Source: a virus
Taxonomy: Duplodnaviria > Caudoviricetes
Strand: one strand, 5' to 3'
Virus record (IMG/VR): IMGVR_UViG_2832187548_000002
Span: 157 to 64,156 of that record
DNA: 64,000 bases
The notes below the pieces were generated by a model, which was given only the letters and a program-made list of their open reading frames with translations, was not told where the DNA came from and searched no databases. Both the position numbers and the translations under genes were made by a program. This document shows, piece by piece, positions 39,703 to 58,905 of the stretch (position 1 is the stretch's first letter; each line of letters starts with the position of its first letter).

Positions 39703-39728
39703 GCGCAAACGTATTTGCAAAACGTCAA
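39703..39728 (-). promoter_or_regulatory. Operator family A in spacer of a TTGACG promoter
   Basis: GCGCAAACGTATTTGCAA followed by AACGTCAA. Confidence 0.65.
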
Positions 39729-43091: not shown

Positions 43092-43118
43092 ATTTGCATA
43101 TTGCAAACATGTTTGCAA
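43092..43118. promoter_or_regulatory. Operator family A, perfect 18-bp palindrome
   Basis: TTGCAAACATGTTTGCAA at 43101-43118 plus upstream half-site; near reverse-complement of the 1188 site. Confidence 0.75.
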
Positions 43119-43171: not shown

Positions 43172-43510
43172 ATGGAAGAGAAAGAGAAACGCGGGGCGCG
43201 GGCCTACGCTCTGGCCTGCAGGGATCTGGAACAAAAGATCCTGCAAGTCTTCACCGACCACGCCAACGCAATCCGGACCGCCGTTCATCCCGACCACGAA
43301 GAACACACGGTCGAACTGGTCATCACGGGTGGGGTGCGTGCCATGTTCTGCGCTGCCTATCACACACTGGCTTGTGTGTCGTTTGGCGAAGATGCGCAGC
43401 GCCGCGCGGAAATCCGGCAATTCTTTTACGAAGCGCTGGCCGATATCGAGGCGTCCCGAAAGCTCCCGCCCGTTTACGACCCCTCGAATGTGCCCGAGGT
43501 GGTGCAATGA
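43172..43510 (+). CDS. Hypothetical protein
   Basis: GGAG RBS; ATGA overlap with next gene. Confidence 0.7.
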   Translation: MEEKEKRGARAYALACRDLEQKILQVFTDHANAIRTAVHPDHEEHTVELVITGGVRAMFCAAYHTLACVSFGEDAQRRAEIRQFFYEALADIEASRKLPPVYDPSNVPEVVQ

Positions 43511-44718
43511 ACGCCCTCGTCTCACGCCGGGCGCTGATTGCAGCCCTTAAGCTGGCGCTGCCGGGTGTCGACAAGTTGGGCGCGCTGCCGTTCCGCTATG
43601 TCTGGCTCGAGGTGATAGAAAATCACCTGCGGGTGCGCACGTACAATGCCGAGATCGCTATTGACGTGACAGTTCGCGCGGAAGGGCGCGGCGCGACGGA
43701 AGGATCTGTCTTCGTGCCGATGTCGCGCTTGCTGCGCGTCCTGTCCGCCATGGAAGACGATGAAATCCACCTCGTCGCGATCTCCGGCCGCCTTGTTCTA
43801 GGGGGCAGGCGGCAGCGCATGCAGATGCTGGGCTTGGCTGAGAAAATCGGCGATGTCATGCCCGAGTCCGGCCCGCCGCCGCTTTTCTCACTCCCGCTTG
43901 CCGAGGGGCAGTTGCACGGCATCATTCGGCCCGTCTATCACGCTGCCAGCTATGAAGAGACGCGGTACTATCTGAACGGCGTCTGTCTGCAGAACGATAG
44001 CGACGGCAAATTGCAGTTGCTGCGGACGATAGCCACCAATGGTCATATGCTGGAAAGCCGCGCGACGGGCGTCCTCCAGCAGCTGCCGAACCTGTCCGTC
44101 ATCATCCCGCATGTGGCCGTCAAGGCGATCCTGCAAACCTCGCCAGACGTCGAGGCCCGGCTCGAACTGTTCGGCGACGAGAAGCGCCCATATCATATTG
44201 GCCGGTATGTCGGCGATAACTTCGAAATCCGGTTCAAGTTGATCGACGGCACCTATCCCGACTGGCGGCGCGTTGTGCCGGATGTCGCCGGCGGCGCGTT
44301 TGTGGACGTGTCCGCCCTCGAATTGCGCAGGGCGCTGCGTTTCGTCCGTTCTTCGATAGGTGGCAGTTTCAGGTGCACTTGCCTGTTGCCGATCAGCGAT
44401 AGCGAGATCGGACTCCGTTACATCGAGGACGGTGGCGACTACATCACCACGGCCCGCATCCCCGGCACCTCAACACCAGATCTCAAGGACAAGCCTTTCG
44501 TGCCTGTGGGCCTCAATGCCGAGTATCTGGCCACCCTCGTCGAAACGGCAGTGGGAACCCTCCGCATAAAGCAGTCCAGCACGGACTTGGGGCCTATCGT
44601 CCTACAGCATGAAGGCATCCCCTATGCCGTCACGCTGATGATGCCGATGCGCATGGACGACAAGTTGCGCAATTTGAAGGAGCCCGAGGTTCCGGCCGAG
44701 GCCACCGCCGATGCCTGA
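43507..44718 (+). CDS. DNA polymerase III beta sliding clamp-like protein
   Basis: EETRYYLNGV, ATNGHML, VIIP, LIDGTYPDWRRVVP, GLNAEYL, LMMPMR. Confidence 0.85.
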   Translation: MNALVSRRALIAALKLALPGVDKLGALPFRYVWLEVIENHLRVRTYNAEIAIDVTVRAEGRGATEGSVFVPMSRLLRVLSAMEDDEIHLVAISGRLVLGGRRQRMQMLGLAEKIGDVMPESGPPPLFSLPLAEGQLHGIIRPVYHAASYEETRYYLNGVCLQNDSDGKLQLLRTIATNGHMLESRATGVLQQLPNLSVIIPHVAVKAILQTSPDVEARLELFGDEKRPYHIGRYVGDNFEIRFKLIDGTYPDWRRVVPDVAGGAFVDVSALELRRALRFVRSSIGGSFRCTCLLPISDSEIGLRYIEDGGDYITTARIPGTSTPDLKDKPFVPVGLNAEYLATLVETAVGTLRIKQSSTDLGPIVLQHEGIPYAVTLMMPMRMDDKLRNLKEPEVPAEATADA

Positions 44719-45143: not shown

Positions 45144-45436
45144 GCACAGAAACATGGCGCGCTGGCAAGCCGGTGCTGCGCCTCACGCCTCGGCAGTTCC
45201 TGGACCTGCCGGAATACAGCACCACCTTTCCGACCGGAACAACACCGGGCAAGCGGTGGCGCCGCCTCGACGGGGCCTATGACACAGTTTTCATCCGCAA
45301 GGGCGGTAAGCCCAAGTGGATGATTGGGGAATACGACCCGAACGATGACGGCAAAGGCCCGCGCATCAAAATCAACTGGTACCGGCCTGTCATTGTAGTG
45401 CGGGCTGGCGCGGTGATCCTCGATGACGCCGCTTGA
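45140..45436 (+). CDS. Hypothetical protein
   Basis: LPEYSTTFPTGTTPGKRWRR; ATGA overlap. Confidence 0.65.
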   Translation: MSTETWRAGKPVLRLTPRQFLDLPEYSTTFPTGTTPGKRWRRLDGAYDTVFIRKGGKPKWMIGEYDPNDDGKGPRIKINWYRPVIVVRAGAVILDDAA

Positions 45437-45899
45437 TGTCGTACGTGAGGCCGCGGCCACCTATAAGGTCCCGGCGCATCAGTTGATGGGCGGGCGCTAC
45501 CAGGGCAGGTATTCCACCGCCAGGCTTTATGCCGTCCGCCAGCTGCGCAAGGCCTTCCCCCGCCTCAAACATGCCGAGGTGGCCGAACTGGTTGGGGTGG
45601 GGGCGCGCAGAATTTCGGCGATGGCCAATTCTAAGCGGATCATCATTCCGCCCAACAACGTCGACCCTATGGAAGTCATCAAGCAGGTTGCGGCCGAACA
45701 CGGAATCGCGCCGGCCGATATCCTCAAGCCCGGCCGGTTCAAGCACCTGGTCGCCGCCAGATATGACGCAATCCGCCTCGTCCACGCCATGCGGCCGGAC
45801 TTGCCGTATCTGGAATTGGCCAGGATCTTCAAGCGCGACGGCAGCACGATACGCTACGCGCTATCCAGGCCGGCAGCCGATACGGGCGCACCGAACTAA
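45423..45899 (+). CDS. Protein with tandem DnaA C-terminal (domain IV)-like HTH repeats
   Basis: Two repeats; second: VIKQVAAEHGIAPADIL...R...LVAAR...ELARIFKRDGSTIRYAL. Confidence 0.75.
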   Translation: MTPLDVVREAAATYKVPAHQLMGGRYQGRYSTARLYAVRQLRKAFPRLKHAEVAELVGVGARRISAMANSKRIIIPPNNVDPMEVIKQVAAEHGIAPADILKPGRFKHLVAARYDAIRLVHAMRPDLPYLELARIFKRDGSTIRYALSRPAADTGAPN

Positions 45900-45946
45900 G
45901 TCCCTGAAAAAGATCATGAAAATGCAAAAATTCCGCAGGTCAAGGC

Positions 45947-45977
45947 TTGCGGAAATGCACTCTTTAGTGCATATTAT
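45947..45977 (+). promoter_or_regulatory. Promoter with palindrome ATGCACT-CTTT-AGTGCAT
   Basis: TTGCGG-N17-CATATT; inverted repeat 45955-45972. Confidence 0.55.
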
Positions 45978-46029
45978 TCAAGCGCTGAGGGGGCGGGATG
46001 GTCCCGCCCCGCGCTGGAGGTAAGAGGGA

Positions 46030-46110
46030 ATGAAGCTGCAATACTTCGCCCTTGCCCTTCAGGTGACAGTGGCGATCATGCTCCTAGTGAGCCTGATCCA
46101 CCACTGGTAA
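46030..46110 (+). CDS. 26-aa hydrophobic peptide
   Basis: MKLQYFALALQVTVAIMLLVSLIHHW; GGAGGTAAGAGGGA upstream; flanked by hairpins. Confidence 0.6.
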   Translation: MKLQYFALALQVTVAIMLLVSLIHHW

Positions 46111-46172
46111 ACTGAAGCCCGCCCGTCCCGGCTGCACCCGGGGCGGGCACCTCCAAACATAAGGTGGAAGGC

Positions 46173-46415
46173 ATGCGAGGGCAAGATTTCCTGCGGTGGA
46201 TGGACGTGGTAGGCGCGCGCTTTGCTGGCGACGTCGCCGAGCGCCTCGGCACGGGTAGGAACATAGCCCAACGATGGCTTGCACTGGCGAAGGCGGGGGA
46301 GGACGTGCCGGTCCAGCATTCATATGCGCTGGCAATGTCCGCCCTCGCCAGCGGCCTGAAACCATGGGGCTCGAGCCCCGATGCGAAAGGAGCCGGAAAT
46401 GACAATGCGGAGTAA
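46173..46415 (+). CDS. Small HTH regulator
   Basis: DVAERLGTGRNIAQRW...ALAMSALASGLKPW. Confidence 0.7.
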   Translation: MRGQDFLRWMDVVGARFAGDVAERLGTGRNIAQRWLALAKAGEDVPVQHSYALAMSALASGLKPWGSSPDAKGAGNDNAE

Positions 46416-46491
46416 CAAACTAGCGTGGGCGTCGATCGCCGTGTCTGTCGTGATTATCGGCCTGTTGGCCGTCCAGTACCTGCACGGCTGA
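46399..46491 (+). CDS. 30-aa single-TM peptide
   Basis: MTMRSNKLAWASIAVSVVIIGLLAVQYLHG; AAAGGAG RBS. Confidence 0.6.
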   Translation: MTMRSNKLAWASIAVSVVIIGLLAVQYLHG

Positions 46492-46511
46492 GATCTGACG
46501 CCGTAGAATCG

Positions 46512-46552
46512 GAAGCCCCGCCGCGTCCATGACACGCGGCGGGGCTTCTTTA
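46512..46552. terminator. Strong hairpin between convergent units (probably bidirectional terminator)
   Basis: 15-bp perfect stem GAAGCCCCGCCGCGT/ACGCGGCGGGGCTTC; T-run on plus side. Confidence 0.7.
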
Positions 46553-47737
46553 TGTGGGCCGGATTGGGTACCGGGGCAATTTCAAGCGCGAAGCGCTACA
46601 ATCAACGTCGGTCCCCCGAACGTGCTCACCACATACGCCTATGAGGGGCAGAGCCTCAATTCTGCCGTAGGCCTCGCGGGTTCTGGCGCTCACCGCGTCT
46701 CACATTCAAACAGACTGGACCGCTCGCTTCCCACCCGGATTTTCACCGGCCTTAGCCTCGTCCGTCCGCTGCCTGAAAACTCGCCAGCGGGGCCGGGTCT
46801 CTAGCAACGCAGTGATCAGCTGCGCCCCATACTCCCGGCCCCTTCTCTGCTAGGCGTGCCGTTGCCCCTTCGGGCGAATGCTGCACGGACGACACCCGCA
46901 AGTGCCATTCTTGGCGGCCGTGCCCGCCACCTGCCGTCTGTTCGGCTCTTCGGGCATCCCGGCAGGTGGATGCTCCGTCAGCCCCTGCGCAGCGAGAAGG
47001 GTCCCACGCAGGCTCGGAAATTCCTGCCTCGGCTCGGCCCCGGCCTAACGGGGCTGTTCCACTTAAGGACTGCGATCCCCTTTTCCTTTCGGCGGGGCGA
47101 GGTAAAGCCGCCATTGCTGGCGTTCGGCGCACTTCGTGCCCTCTTGGGCGAAACCGGGTGAAGGGAAACAGCCGCGTGTGCTCCGGCCTATCCCTTCACT
47201 GCCCGTCTCTGACTCGCCAGCTTGGCCCGGGCCACGGGCCGGGGGCGGTGCTACGGAACAACGTTGCCCATTCGGGCGAATATCGGGCGAGGGGAATGAC
47301 CGTCGTCTCTCCCCTCGCTCTTGCCGGTGTGGGCTTTAGCGCCGGCCGCGCGCAAAATGACCGATCCCACTTCTACCAAGTCACGCATCCCGGCTTAGAC
47401 TTGGAATAGAGGCTGCTTAACGTCGTGGCCAAAGCCGTGACGCCGGGCTCTACTATTTCGCGGGGGTGCCTCTCGGGTAGTCACTCCCGGTCGGCTGAGA
47501 GGCTGACTAGGCCACTCCCCCCATTCCGTTGCCCATTCGGGCGAAACCGACAGAGTTTTACGACATGCAGCCAATTGGTCGAATATTGCCTTTCGGCCGG
47601 TGAATTACCCGAGGCGCTTTTTAAGCCGCTCGCCCATCGGCCCGGTTCTCTCCGCTCCGAGATCTCGCTCTCGGCGGCAAAGGCGCTGCAGGAACCGGAA
47701 ACCCCGCCCACCTTCTCGTATGCCCGCTAGGGCAAAT
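46551..47737 (-). ncRNA. Candidate large structured ncRNA or ncRNA array downstream of phage tRNA
   Basis: About 1.19 kb with no credible ORF, dense helices and GNRA loops, five conserved hairpins; lies between tRNA CCA and a terminator. Confidence 0.6.
46860..47736 (-). repeat. Five dispersed TGCCC-N4-GGGCRAA hairpin repeats
   Basis: 46860-46878, 47135-47152, 47262-47280, 47527-47545, 47717-47736. Confidence 0.85.
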
Positions 47738-47814
47738 TGGTTGCAGAGACCGGATTCGAACCGGTGACCCATTGGGTATGAACCAATCGCGCTAGACCGC
47801 TGCGCCACTCTGCT
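47738..47814 (-). tRNA. Phage tRNA with CAT anticodon (Met/fMet-like)
   Basis: Full cloverleaf, TTCGAAT T-loop, anticodon loop TTCATAC, encoded CCA; 77 nt. Confidence 0.9.
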
Positions 47815-47821
47815 GTCACCG

Positions 47822-47850
47822 AAGATGCAAACATATTTGCAAAATGTCAA
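47822..47850 (-). promoter_or_regulatory. tRNA/ncRNA promoter with operator A in spacer
   Basis: TTGACA-N17-CATCTT; ATGCAAACATATTTGCAA at 47825-47842. Confidence 0.7.
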
Positions 47851-47853
47851 CAC

Positions 47854-50598
47854 TCAATCCGCGCCAACAAGCGATGAAATGTGGAACATGAAGACTTTCT
47901 TGGGCGCGCCGTTGATCCGCATGGTTTTTCCCTCGTATACGCACGCAGGGTGTTGCTTGAGAACACCAGCCCAGCGCTTCCCAGCCCATGCCGTCTTTTC
48001 ATATAGACGGTTCAAGCCGTCGTGATCGGATCCGAAATACACTTCGCCGAAGCCGGGACACTCTGATTCGCCCGGAATCACCTTGATGCCGATTTTGGCG
48101 AGGGCCTGTTGCGCGGCCAAGTCCGAGCTTTCGAGAGAGTGCGGCGCGGCCTGCTGCGAAGCGGCATAGATGAGCGCGGAAATATTGTCCCGGCGTGACG
48201 GGTTCACCTCGATGCGCTGGTCAAGCAGATGGCTGACAGCCTGGTCGTGGTCCGCTTCCGTCTTCTGGCGCTCGGCCGCTGACAATGCCCAGCCATTGGC
48301 GTCGAGGATCTCGCGCGCTTCCTCGGGCGTCAGTTCGGTGTCGTGCAGAAGAGACCACCAGCCGGCAAGCGGCGCGGAAATGGTGTCCGCCATGCGGGCG
48401 TTGCCGGACTTGGCGGCGATCGCCGAACGGAAGGACGCCCAATTGTGCCGTATGGCATTCACCTGCCGAAGCGCACGCGCAAACAGACGGCTCCCAAAGT
48501 CGGGCGTCATCAGTTCCGCGAACTTGCGCACCACGTATTGGAAATTCGCTTCGCGTTCGGCCTTCTGATCCTCCGTTTCCTCTTCCGGCGCGCCTTCAAG
48601 CTTAAACTCAATGATGCGCGATTGGTCGGCCGCTTGCACGGCGCCTGTGTTGATGGACGAAAAAATGAAGCAGCTCCGAAGATGGAATTCGGTAGCCCGG
48701 CCACTGGCGCCGCCCTTGACGATTTTCGCACCCTTCTTCGATGACATCTGACGGGCGAGGTCCACGATCAGCTGCAGCCGTTCGCGGGCCTTCTCGTTCT
48801 GGCTTTCCGCCTCGTCGAAGATGACGGGCAGCGCATCGCGGCCCAGCTGCTGCCGGATCGCGGCCTCGGTCGTAGCGCCCTCATACTGGACAGCGAGGTC
48901 GCCCAAGATTTCCTTGGCCTTCTCCACGATGAATGTCTTGCCCGAGCCGCGCGCGCCGGTAAGCCACGCGTGTGTGCGCCAGGGCAGCACGCCGCAGATG
49001 GGCGCGACGAACAGCCAGCCGGCGAACAGCGGTGCCATGTCGGATGAGCGCCATGGAAGAGTACCGACAGCCTCAATCAGGCGTTCGCCACCAGCCGGGT
49101 CGAGGGGCTTGCACCGCTGCAATTCGATCTCGGGGCCGCTCTCATAGATATTGCGGCTGTCCTCGATGTGCATGGTCGGCATCGCTTTGCCGTCAACAAG
49201 CAAGCGGTTGCCGAGGTGAAGGACGACGCGCCCCTTGTCGATAACGAGGCCGCGGCCGACCACTCGGCTGGACTTGTAATAGCCAGCTGCGGTGCATGCG
49301 CGAATCATCGTGGCGCGCGCCTCGCTCCAATTGCACCCCGACTTGGCCGGGAATTCCGATTCCCAATAGCTGATATCGGCAAGGCTGCAGAAATAGGCCT
49401 CATTGTGCTGGGGAGGCGTCAAGGCCGTCACGATGTGGCTCGATGCGGACATATAATAATATGTCGTGCCGCCGGTGCCCGCCCCGTCATAGCCCAAGGG
49501 TATCGGGCCAAAGTCGCCGGGCATCCTGGCCATGGGCCTGGGCGTATCCGGCTGTTCGTCGGCCGTGCGTTCCGCTCGAGCCTCTGCCAGGCTGACGACA
49601 TTGTTCCCGGTAACTCGGGCCTCCACCATGTCGCGCGCAGGTTCGGGTTTGGGCTTGGGAAAGAACGCCTCTTTCACGGCGTCGAGGCCAGCGAGGGCGT
49701 GCAGATCATTGAAATCGGTGGGCGCCTTCCCGTCTGGCAGCAGTTCACCTGAAAATCGCGGGACAACCAACGTAGCGTTTATGGCACGCGCCGCGTCCGT
49801 TGCCTTCGTCACGCCGGGGTTGCCGGTGGTGAGGTGGTCGTTATCTGCGGCGAAGATGATTTTATGGTCCGGATACTTCTTCCGTATCGCCACCGCAACG
49901 GCAGCGAGGTTGCCGGCGTCAAAGGCAATGACGGTGCAGAAGCCCGTGGCCATGTGCACGGTGGCGGCCGTCGCGTAACCCTCGGCAATGACAATGGTGT
50001 CTGTCAGCTTGCCAACGGACCAATAGTTGCCGCCCTTTTTCCCGCCGACGAGGAAGCGCTTTCGGCCATCGGCCGCGATAGTTTGGACAGACCAAAGCTT
50101 GCCGTCCGACGACTTCAACGGGATCAGTAGCTTCCCGTCCTTCGTCATTTTCATGGCGTTGAACGGCTTCACCAGCTTGCGGACAAGATACGGGTGGTCG
50201 GCAGCGGCCGGGATGGCAGCCGCCATCATCTTGGCCGCTTTGTCCGCCGCCTCGGCATGGATTTTCGCCAGTTCGGCAGCCTGATTTTTCTTGTCTTCCT
50301 CGATCCGCTTTTTCAGCGCCGCGCGCTCTTCCGGTGTCATGGACTGGCCGCGCTTGGCCGTCCACGTCTCTTTCACGCCTTCCAAATAGTCGCCGAACGC
50401 GCCCGATGCCGGCTCGTTCAGGTGGAGAATGTACCAAAGGTGTTTCTTGTTCTTCGCCCGTCCGTTGTGGTCGACGCGGTGCAATTTGCCGTCCGCGATA
50501 AGCGGGCCGTCAAACGTGCAGCCAGCATTGGCCATGGCATCGCGGAAGGCGTCTTCTAGATCGGCTTCGGTATGCGCTTGCGTCGTCACAATCCGCAC
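47854..50598 (-). CDS. Toprim primase-helicase fusion
   Basis: HPYLVRK, IAEGYATA, FAADND, TDFNDL (Toprim); Walker A GARGSGKT and Walker B IFDEAE. Confidence 0.9.
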   Translation of the reverse strand: MRIVTTQAHTEADLEDAFRDAMANAGCTFDGPLIADGKLHRVDHNGRAKNKKHLWYILHLNEPASGAFGDYLEGVKETWTAKRGQSMTPEERAALKKRIEEDKKNQAAELAKIHAEAADKAAKMMAAAIPAAADHPYLVRKLVKPFNAMKMTKDGKLLIPLKSSDGKLWSVQTIAADGRKRFLVGGKKGGNYWSVGKLTDTIVIAEGYATAATVHMATGFCTVIAFDAGNLAAVAVAIRKKYPDHKIIFAADNDHLTTGNPGVTKATDAARAINATLVVPRFSGELLPDGKAPTDFNDLHALAGLDAVKEAFFPKPKPEPARDMVEARVTGNNVVSLAEARAERTADEQPDTPRPMARMPGDFGPIPLGYDGAGTGGTTYYYMSASSHIVTALTPPQHNEAYFCSLADISYWESEFPAKSGCNWSEARATMIRACTAAGYYKSSRVVGRGLVIDKGRVVLHLGNRLLVDGKAMPTMHIEDSRNIYESGPEIELQRCKPLDPAGGERLIEAVGTLPWRSSDMAPLFAGWLFVAPICGVLPWRTHAWLTGARGSGKTFIVEKAKEILGDLAVQYEGATTEAAIRQQLGRDALPVIFDEAESQNEKARERLQLIVDLARQMSSKKGAKIVKGGASGRATEFHLRSCFIFSSINTGAVQAADQSRIIEFKLEGAPEEETEDQKAEREANFQYVVRKFAELMTPDFGSRLFARALRQVNAIRHNWASFRSAIAAKSGNARMADTISAPLAGWWSLLHDTELTPEEAREILDANGWALSAAERQKTEADHDQAVSHLLDQRIEVNPSRRDNISALIYAASQQAAPHSLESSDLAAQQALAKIGIKVIPGESECPGFGEVYFGSDHDGLNRLYEKTAWAGKRWAGVLKQHPACVYEGKTMRINGAPKKVFMFHISSLVGAD

Positions 50599-51512
50599 CC
50601 CGCCTCAGCTGCACACGGCAAGGCCAACAGATTACCTTGGCCCCTGGCCTCAGCTGATGAAAAGTCGATGTCGGCGAGCGGTCGCAGTGAGCGGTGCACA
50701 AATTCCTGATGTTTCATGCCGGGCGTATTGCGGATCAGGGCGTCAATCTCACAGGCAGCCGCAAATGCTTCGGGGTCGTTCTCCTTCAACCACCGCCATT
50801 CCGCATTTTCCCTGAAAGGACAGTAGACGCACGCCGACTTTGGCGGCACGGGATACCCGTTTCGTTTCAACCATTCGATGCAATCGCCGCGCGACATTCT
50901 GAGTTCGAGCAATGGGAAGCGATTGACTGCCCATGCATCGAAGGATGCGCCGGCTCGTATGACCTCATCGGTAGAAATCCCGATCCAAATTTCGCACGAA
51001 CGGGCCGGAATTCGTTGGCGAGGCTGGAATCCCATCAGTGCCCGGTGGGCCTTCGTCAGCGGCTCGACCTTGAATTCGCGGGTGCACTGGCGTCTGCCCA
51101 TGCCGCCATTGGCGGTAAAGAAGGGGGCAACCGTGAACCGATGGCCTGATGACTGCTGCCGGTGACGGATATCATCGGAAAGCTTGCGTCCTGCGCTGAC
51201 GCGCTTCACCTCCATCTGCCCATTGGTCATGCGTGTGATCTCGCCTTCCAGCCAGTCGAGGTGACGCATCACGGACGCCGGCTCGTCGCCGGTGTCGGCA
51301 AACAGTATGACGTCAGGCCGGGGCCGAAGGTCGCCGCGCGCCGCCATAAGGGCAAGCGTGGTTGACTGGACACCGGCCCCGAGGGAAAGGGCGCGGAGTT
51401 TGACGCCTTCGACAGGCCCCCAACTCCACCCGCCCTTGCGCGTTTTGGTCCGTTGCCGCCGCCCGCCAACGCTTTTCGGCTCTTCGGTGGGACTCAGAAC
51501 AAGTTCCGTCAC
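50586..51512 (-). CDS. PAPS-reductase-like / adenine nucleotide alpha hydrolase family protein
   Basis: SLGAGVQS PP-loop, FADTGDE, RQCTREFK, KSACVYCPF. Confidence 0.75.
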   Translation of the reverse strand: MTELVLSPTEEPKSVGGRRQRTKTRKGGWSWGPVEGVKLRALSLGAGVQSTTLALMAARGDLRPRPDVILFADTGDEPASVMRHLDWLEGEITRMTNGQMEVKRVSAGRKLSDDIRHRQQSSGHRFTVAPFFTANGGMGRRQCTREFKVEPLTKAHRALMGFQPRQRIPARSCEIWIGISTDEVIRAGASFDAWAVNRFPLLELRMSRGDCIEWLKRNGYPVPPKSACVYCPFRENAEWRWLKENDPEAFAAACEIDALIRNTPGMKHQEFVHRSLRPLADIDFSSAEARGQGNLLALPCAAEAGCGL

Positions 51513-58867: not shown

Positions 58868-58905
58868 TTGACGACTCCCAAAACATATTTGCAATATACA
58901 AATAC
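58868..58905 (+). promoter_or_regulatory. Early promoter with operator A
   Basis: TTGACG then CCAAAACATATTTGCAATATACAAATAC, nearly identical to the 1190-1216 site. Confidence 0.7.

Follow-up and report, generated by a model that had tools for sequence, protein, structure and literature searches.

Layout of the island

The DNA considered here is a stretch at positions 46551-47850, read on the minus strand, of a 64,000-nt window (the whole stretch of DNA that was analyzed; positions 157 to 64,156 of IMG/VR record IMGVR_UViG_2832187548_000002). The source was a provirus record of 64,156 bases with a CheckV completeness of 84%. An earlier sequence-only reading had proposed that a transfer RNA (tRNA) gene in this stretch was co-transcribed with one large non-coding RNA or with a string of structured RNAs. 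The findings of this study favored, with confidence somewhat above even, a modular, polycistronic island of tRNA and small RNAs, punctuated by a 19-nt hairpin repeat (R1) and including a member of a 71-nt RNA family (R2), both of which were overlooked in that reading. Divided by the R1 copies, the stretch falls into five segments, 109-328 nt long, with nothing else in common, and the layout was as follows (z, folding z-score by minimum free energy):

47822-47850, minus: promoter-like site TTGACA-N17-CATCTT, good -35 and weak -10, 8 nt upstream of the tRNA
47826-47841, both strands: putative 16-bp palindromic operator TGCAAA-N4-TTTGCA, inside the promoter spacer
47738-47814, minus: tRNA, anticodon CAU, encoded CCA end, found by ARAGORN (as CAT) and the Rfam tRNA model
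47709-47744, minus: a fifth, degenerate copy of R1; the match is weak (7.9 bits; E 0.061 in 1.36 kb) and ranks fifth
47546-47708, minus: segment M0, non-coding; z 0.39 for 47546-47737; nhmmer of 47546-47716 found nothing
47527-47545, minus: R1 copy 1, exact 19-mer, 40.2 bits
47281-47526, minus: segment M1, the sole segment folding better than shuffles; 9-bp hairpin GCGAGGGGA/UCCCCUCGC
47262-47280, minus: R1 copy 2, exact 19-mer, 37.9 bits
47153-47261, minus: segment M2, two hairpins, one being GUGAAGGGA/UCCCUUCAC; z -1.39
47134-47152, minus: R1 copy 3, a variant with loop AAGA, altered 3' tail and 2 mismatches, 21.3 bits
46879-47133, minus: segment M3; z -0.54
46860-46878, minus: R1 copy 4, loop GAAG, 29.6 bits
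46778-46859, minus: segment M4a, separating R2 from R1 copy 4; its long hairpin is GGGGCCGGG...CCCGGCCCC
46707-46777, minus: R2, member of the 71-nt family, 64.2 bits, identified by BLAST and covariation
46551-46706, minus: segment M4c, the island tail, no homologue found
46512-46548, no strand assigned: perfect 15-bp hairpin, 15-nt arms, 100% complementary, at the island end; probably a bidirectional terminator

The ca. 1.19 kb at 46551-47737 is non-coding, as had been supposed from the lack of a credible open reading frame (ORF). GC content by codon position was flat across this interval, unlike in the flanking genes, and the three largest internal ORFs (126, 147, and 101 aa) had no Pfam or PHROG match, with two of the three also giving no tblastn match in 50,697 phage records. 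The 47-codon ORF of segment M4c (46550-46693) showed no coding signal. The minus-strand tRNA(CAT) described earlier was placed at 47738-47814 by both ARAGORN and Rfam, the latter with a score of 59.8 bits against a gathering score of 29. Its pair 1-72 was non-standard in the Rfam alignment, and its amino-acid identity may be Met or Ile2.

The neighboring genes and the other sites matching the putative operator were located as follows:

47854-50598, minus: primase/helicase, 914 aa, phrog_35358, Toprim domains (Pfam/PHROG), upstream of the island
45423-45899, plus, opposite to the island: protein with a DnaA-C-terminal helix-turn-helix (HTH) domain (Pfam/PHROG), downstream of the island
43372-44718, plus, opposite to the island: DNA polymerase III (pol III) beta homologue, or beta-clamp (Pfam/PHROG), downstream of the island
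1189-1204, 39704-39719, 43102-43117, 47826-47841, and 58878-58893, no strand assigned: operator sites from a pattern scan of the window

A PAPS-reductase-like gene (phrog_424; 50586-51512, minus) overlapped the start of the primase gene, and head and packaging genes were located at 29.6-37.1 kb of the window. The 15-bp hairpin directly followed a 36-codon ORF (46381-46491, plus) with a strong ribosome-binding site, which encodes a hydrophobic peptide and may be a small membrane protein gene converging on the RNA island.

The operator that the sequence-only reading had placed in the promoter spacer proved to be a genuine 16-bp palindrome that was repeated, with eight strand-matches at five sites in the window versus 0.25 expected, a count reached by none of 100 shuffles. 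An adjacent half-site (ATTTGCATAT) was present at three of the sites. Two sites began 3 nt after a TTGACR -35 box, the one at 39704 having the same TTGACR-TTT-operator layout as the one at 47826. The TGCAAA-N4-TTTGCA sites are probably the operator set of a phage repressor, and repressor control of the promoter-like site at 47822-47850 is plausible, because the operator is repeated and the 39704 site shares its arrangement of -35 box, TTT, and operator. The lytic expression proposed in the sequence-only reading is likewise plausible, given the repeated operator in the promoter spacer.

R1, a 19-nt hairpin repeat

R1 reads UUCGCCC-GAAU-GGGCAACG and comprises 3 nt of single-stranded UUC, a hairpin whose 4-bp GCCC/GGGC stem closes a loop of 4 nt, and an AACG(A) that is again single-stranded. 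The 19-mer UUCGCCCGAAUGGGCAACG was found on the minus strand at 47545, 47280, 47152 (the variant), and 46878, giving spacings of 265, 128, and 274 nt; these four matches compared with 0.14 expected, and none of 100 shuffles reached that number. An R1 covariance model run on the stretch returned the same four and the weak 7.9-bit match after the tRNA, all on the minus strand; the four window copies were in the model seed, so their bit scores are not independent, and the pattern count against shuffles is the independent test.

Outside the window, the exact 19-mer was found at 20 IMG/VR loci, 33 metagenome loci, and 12 loci in species genomes. Matches within genes, at seven metagenome loci (all of a single gene family) and at about 7 of the 12 loci in species genomes, were judged coincidental, because the A/U before the motif and the A after it were missing. 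The genome matches that looked genuine were in Bosea (two), Pleomorphomonas, Martelella, and a metagenome-assembled genome of Methylophilaceae. Between lineages, likeness was confined to R1 and a few flanking bases, with unrelated surroundings, and comparison of the stretch with five R1-bearing host genomes likewise gave motif-sized matches only. No pair of R1 copies separated by 231-261 nt was found in a metagenome scan. Strong matches to the covariance model (E<1e-4) formed one cluster per virus record and one or two clusters in each of the five host genomes, indicating that R1 is not a genome-wide repeat. The Pleomorphomonas genome contained a second four-copy array, without a tRNA.

R1 kept to one strand within each locus over 74 model matches from 45 sources, and this was the strand of the tRNAs in all 10 tRNA-bearing IMG/VR loci. 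On a crude ORF map, most loci also had R1 running in the same direction as the nearest upstream ORF, the exceptions including L007 and L028. Over the 74 matches, 99.7% of stem cells were paired, with four two-sided changes, no one-sided change, and one break, although the matches were chosen by a pairing-aware model and the covariation of the stem rests on those four cells. When 60 natural contexts were folded, the R1 hairpin had a median pairing probability of 0.94, and the preceding 8 nt and the AAC that follows were more open than average, with stems on both sides.

R1 began 2-3 nt past the tRNA 3' end in four loci (L004, L060, L082, and L090), and likewise in the weak window copy, whose hairpin GCCC-UAGC-GGGC begins 4 nt past the tRNA CCA. 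Of 73 R1 copies, 11 had CCA and another 1-2 nt ahead of them (background 3.5%), and 28 had CA and another 1-2 nt (background 12.4%). The named RNAs found in R1 arrays were tRNAs, skipping-rope (L021), Proteo-phage-1 (L080), a permuted transfer-messenger RNA (tmRNA; L085), and an mmgR-like match (L012). That R1 is a phage-specific, strand-specific, and tRNA-linked signal is thus well supported.

Two metagenome contigs illustrated the content of such arrays. In L085, a permuted tmRNA gene of alphaproteobacterial type (241-454, minus; 106.5 bits) lay in a phage-like tRNA array, ca. 255 nt after an R1 copy. In L082 (1261 nt), a tRNA-Met was followed by four R1 copies with spacings of 110, 100, and 266 nt, and one segment ended in the same ...CAACCA tail as the tRNA; because of that shared tail, some array segments may be decayed or unusual tRNA copies.

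We infer that R1 acts at the level of RNA. In bacterial tRNA maturation, RNase E cuts U/A-rich single-stranded trailers near the CCA end, after which exonucleases shorten what remains. With its invariant W-UUC linker next to a small hairpin, R1 is consistent with such trailer cutting and for this reason could be an RNase E-type cleavage signal, an assignment that we offer tentatively, as possible rather than probable.

R1 could instead act in RNA as the binding site of a sequence-specific RNA-binding protein, making the island a CsrB-type sponge or a set of nut-like antitermination or anti-Rho sites. The near-invariance of the loop and single-stranded flanks across unrelated phages is typical of protein recognition, and it fits a sequence-specific protein at least as well as a relaxed RNase, which weighs against the cleavage reading. 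The four to five window copies at irregular spacing, with unrelated sequence between them, would also suit such a site, and a long untranslated transcript requires protection from Rho. CsrB/RsmZ sponges and the boxB elements of lambdoid nut sites similarly have small hairpins with conserved loops repeated on one untranslated RNA, and we take the small G-start, 4-nt-loop hairpin of R1 to resemble boxB. The R1 loops, however, have no GGA motif of the CsrB/RsmZ kind, and most arrays have few copies; one or two per locus, the usual number, is few for a sponge. A NusG-like antiterminator was considered as the partner of R1 and rejected, as only 3 of the 18 R1-bearing records, and not the window, contained such genes; proteins of the N type are too short and too varied to be found by searching. 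Among six largely complete R1-bearing phage genomes, no protein family was common to more than three (BLASTP 1e-4; remote homologues could escape). With neither a shared protein family nor a NusG link, a host factor is more likely than a phage-encoded reader of R1. The tight placement 2-3 nt past tRNA 3' ends is better explained by processing, and a protein-binding site is in our assessment unlikely.

Alternatively, R1 could work as DNA, either as a recombination linker for RNA and tRNA cassettes or as iteron-like initiator sites of a replication origin. The island lies in a replication module (primase, DnaA-C HTH protein, pol III beta), the copies are direct repeats in one orientation, a relative of the island from soil (described below) has a cassette-like extra segment between two motif copies, and related pairs of loci such as L005/L020 are mosaic around R1. 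Elsewhere, however, R1 adjoined terminase genes or sat in tRNA arrays rather than in replication modules, and none of 20 primase-homologue loci, in 18 of 401 Hyphomicrobiales/Rhizobiales genomes, had a tRNA, an array, or a convincing R1 within 1.5 kb. Unlike iterons, the R1 copies are spaced widely and irregularly (265, 128, and 274 nt), and GC was 0.59-0.69 throughout, leaving no AT-rich stretch. The location of R1 on the tRNA strand and the compensatory changes in its stem are features that matter for an RNA and not for a DNA site, and exchange at a conserved 19-mer could be a by-product of a function in RNA. We regard a function as DNA as very unlikely.

Two further comparisons bear on what R1 is. 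CRISPR arrays and phage repeat mimics resemble the R1 islands in the alternation of variable sequence with short, conserved hairpin repeats and in the processing of one precursor that such a layout would imply. Repeats of CRISPR arrays measure about 28-37 nt and are regularly spaced, with unstructured spacers of similar length, whereas R1 has 19 nt, its window copies lie 265, 128, and 274 nt apart, spacings in R1 arrays overall are irregular (69-274 nt), and the R1 "spacers" are structured; the strong matches in the five host genomes, judged by R1 alone, formed one or two local clusters. A derivation of R1 from skipping-rope was also rejected: the inner hairpin of the L021 skipping-rope is similar, but no skipping-rope match at E<=10 was obtained with the window copies.

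R2, a 71-nt RNA family

Apart from the tRNA, the part of the stretch that BLAST matched to phages was 46711-46774, over 64-67 nt and at 81-82% identity, in six Streptomyces phages; all these matches lay in unannotated DNA within tRNA clusters. They fall within R2, which consists of an outer stem (P1), two conserved internal-loop strands of ca. 14 nt (CGGACRAGGCU.. and GGUGGGAWGCGAG.GG), and a short 3-bp hairpin (P2). In the aligned examples, the outer stem and the 3-bp inner stem were kept by compensatory changes, and insertions of 15-69 nt were confined to the inner loop. A model built from eight sequences, the window copy among them, scored that copy at 64.2 bits (E about 1e-15) and also matched the R1-bearing contig L080 (one copy) and 37 IMG/VR contigs that had been collected by a degenerate pattern. 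Since the window copy was in the seed, its independent support lies in the 82% BLAST identity to Streptomyces phages and in the pairs kept by compensatory changes.

Across 35 distinct R2 sequences, 89.5% of cells were paired, compared with 53.9% in shuffles, and 14 of 15 pairs had two-sided changes. The covariation score was 0.845, against 0.189 in shuffles and at most 0.141 with partners slid; the alignment was fitted by the model and favors the structure, and the margin is large nonetheless. RNAalifold on a raw MAFFT alignment missed the outer stem through register shifts, and the model-based alignment was used. R2 gave no Rfam 15 match at E<=10, either in the window copy or in that of Streptomyces phage Braelyn. 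By BLAST, R2 was matched in 91 cultured-phage records (Streptomyces and Arthrobacter phages), and no feature was annotated under it among the 40 of 91 matches listed. It is well supported that R2 is a genuine structured RNA family matching nothing in Rfam 15.

Same-strand tRNAs were found within 1.5 kb of 35 of 44 R2 copies; 10 copies began 2-11 nt after a tRNA and 7 ended 0-19 nt before one, while GC around the copies ranged from 23% to 65%. This spacing and range of composition point to an RNA the size of a tRNA, with R2 occupying tRNA slots across widely differing phages. The window copy, unlike several copies in other phages, does not adjoin a tRNA gene: it lies 82 nt after R1 copy 4, as R2 lies after R1 in L080, and its nearest tRNA is 961 nt upstream.

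In Streptomyces phages, R2 was found 30-105 nt before an ORF of ca. 262 aa (a VWA-domain protein in Karimac), and these ORFs formed one blastp cluster of seven. A role as the leader of one downstream gene was considered and rejected. Elsewhere the next ORFs were unrelated or absent, which argues against R2 as a general cis-regulator. Between tRNA-Arg and R2 in the Streptomyces phage loci L044-L050 there was a conserved hairpin that begins TTGACA and is followed ca. 17-18 nt later by a CAnACT-type hexamer; the Streptomyces phage R2 may start at a promoter there and lead into the ca. 262-aa ORF. An unannotated tRNA-like gene was also observed in Braelyn (L022 2393-2468, record 92044-92119; Rfam 32 bits, anticodon UCG by position). 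Its counterpart in sister phages is annotated as tRNA-Arg(tcg), and R2 lies ca. 30 nt after it.

Skipping-rope (RF02924) and Proteo-phage-1 (RF03044) are comparable to R2 as small structured RNAs of unknown function that occur in R1 arrays (L021 and L080). They differ in that neither is present in the window and the structure of R2 is distinct. The T4 tRNA region encodes the species 1 and 2 small stable RNAs, and phage tRNA clusters of this kind share with the island a single co-oriented cluster of tRNAs and small RNAs, to which release by the tRNA-processing machinery would apply. The difference is that the R1 delimiter and R2 match nothing in Rfam 15, the comparison having been made with Rfam and not with the T4 RNAs.

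One transcript or one RNA

Every helix listed in the sequence-only reading was found where it had been described, and its statement that the strand is dense in helices held for long stems. Perfect stems of at least 9 bp numbered four, versus 0.41 +/- 0.63 in dinucleotide shuffles (0 of 300 reached four), while stems of at least 7 bp, nine in number, were no commoner than in shuffles (6.7 +/- 2.4; 66 of 300 reached nine). The folding z-scores of the five segments were, in order, 0.39, -2.56, -1.39, -0.54, and -0.39, M1 being matched by only 1 of 200 shuffles. Thermodynamics alone thus supported local hairpins and M1 and not an ornate 1.2-kb fold. At gathering thresholds, Rfam 15 found two tRNAs in the whole window and nothing else. 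The Infernal comparison with GOLLD, ROOL, and other families that had been suggested gave the tRNA as the sole real match when 46300-48000 was scanned on both strands with cmscan at E<=10, the remainder being sub-threshold chance matches, mostly on the terminal hairpin.

No homologue of the whole stretch was found in the 401 Hyphomicrobiales/Rhizobiales genomes, where one 59-nt match of 80% identity was taken as chance, or in the 50,697 phage records. Searching each window segment with nhmmer against about 90 fetched loci gave two matches (E 0.15 and 0.3), which were rejected; apart from R1 and R2, no segment had a detectable homologue in the fetched loci, the 401 genomes, or the phage collection. 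A search of viral contigs for syntenic relatives through the primase found none, the nearest primases being at most 48% identical. Locus L018, with a large ORF, a tRNA-Met, R1, and a convergent ORF, was considered as a syntenic relative and dismissed, its large ORF matching the window terminase and not the primase. The 13 nt after R1 copy 3 (47133-47121, a AGUGCGCCGAAC-type start) recurred behind R1 in the unrelated arrays L004 and L066, and UAGGCCGG was present ca. 95-117 nt into the segment in window M3, L004, and L066. These shared elements may mark another RNA family; as a claim it was dropped, the 13-nt start and UAGGCCGG being too little.

Close relatives of the island came from two environmental sources, each represented by single low-depth contigs of DNA; no RNA run containing the stretch was listed. 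Contigs of activated-sludge DNA were identical to the island over the parts covered, and in a soil DNA run there was a close relative that had few substitutions and differed structurally at three places: two copies of R1 copy 2 were separated by ca. 88 additional nt, and the sequence diverged beyond 47026 and beyond 47414. An island that is modular and fast-changing in this way argues against one co-folded RNA.

The same evidence bears on the proposal that the whole 1.19 kb is one large ornate RNA, with the R1 copies as repeated structural blocks. Passages of PMC5737381 describe GOLLD and ROOL as non-coding RNAs of prophages that lie beside tRNA genes and are possibly co-transcribed with them. 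The island's prophage site near a tRNA matches those accounts, a likeness of context that is not diagnostic, and the four perfect hairpins of at least 9 bp and the z-score of M1 are what a large structured RNA could show. The island nevertheless matched neither Rfam model, nor any other, at E<=10, and it is not conserved as a unit but built of exchangeable segments divided by a repeat, so that the GOLLD-like variant proposed earlier found no support. A single large RNA is also difficult to reconcile with the ordinary folding of four of the five segments, the want of a whole-stretch homologue in the genomes, phage records, or fetched loci, the entirely different content of other R1 arrays (one to four copies), the gain and replacement of sub-segments in the soil relative, and the occurrence of R2 alone between tRNAs elsewhere. 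We consider it the least probable of the explanations weighed here. The alternative of a string of about five structured RNAs fared better, in that five segments are set off by R1 and one holds a member of the R2 family.

The reading that we favor, a punctuated tRNA/small-RNA island, would work as follows. The island belongs to a temperate phage of an alphaproteobacterium, with the promoter-like site and its repeated operator followed by tRNA(CAU) and then by five segments, each introduced by R1. From one precursor transcript, the tRNA and a number of separate small RNAs would be released by cutting. R1 would serve as punctuation at the RNA level, a trailer or spacer signal shared between the RNA genes of the transcript, exposing a U-rich linker beside a small stable hairpin to a host endoribonuclease as in tRNA 3'-trailer processing, while its hairpin would also keep adjacent modules folding independently. 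R2 (46707-46777) would be one of the released RNAs, a member of a widespread phage family that in other phages replaces a tRNA within tRNA arrays.

Several observations weigh against this reading. Transcription as one unit, cleavage at R1, and the stability and function of the pieces are inferred. The promoter reported before the tRNA is present as a sequence, occurring once in the window against 0.01 expected, but its second hexamer, CATCTT, is poor, and a stricter consensus scan of 45300-48300 called neither a promoter nor a terminator. The hairpin at the end of the stretch is perfect, as described, but its U-run is on the plus strand, following the 46381-46491 ORF and favoring the opposite strand; for the minus strand, it would be at best a bidirectional terminator. 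Four of the five segments fold no better than shuffles, and since no homologue was found for any segment apart from R1 and R2, a functional RNA is unsupported by comparison over ca. 1 kb of the island. Of the three breakpoints in the soil relative, two (47026 and 47414) fall inside segments and not at R1.

Apart from the tRNA and R2, the stretch could instead be mostly non-functional, made up of decayed remnants of tRNA and other RNA genes and of spacer retaining a trailer motif. No homologues were found for M0-M3, M4a, and M4c, folding energies outside M1 were ordinary, and the tRNA-like ...CAACCA tail in an L082 segment suggests that some arrays hold decayed tRNA copies. However, 1 kb of junk would be costly, because the genomes of temperate phages are tightly packed, and the R1 copies have remained nearly perfect, long perfect hairpins are enriched, and the sludge and soil copies are near-identical over the covered parts. 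We therefore hold decay to be quite unlikely.

A bolder form of the island reading is that R1 islands are a cassette system for phage small RNAs, in which the 19-mer would be both an RNA processing mark and a DNA crossover point, R2 would act on translation or on tRNA-targeting defence, for example as a decoy, and M0-M3 would be further undescribed RNA classes. In this full form we think it rather doubtful. If true, tRNAs, tmRNA, R2, skipping-rope, Proteo-phage-1, and further RNAs would be shuffled between unrelated phages, and R2 would be an RNA that depends on tRNA processing.

Full-text literature searches, with the supplementary list of 224 motifs of PMC5737381 outside their scope, returned no account of R1, of R2, or of arrays punctuated in this way, and searches for the motif strings in full text gave two unrelated matches (PRRSV and tardigrade proteins).

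Small RNAs beside phage tRNA genes are known, and their organization is poorly understood. R1 provides a simple 19-nt handle for finding such islands in many alphaproteobacterial phages and prophages, and it shows that they are built from interchangeable units. Both R1 and R2 are relevant to the delivery of tRNAs and other RNAs by infecting phages.

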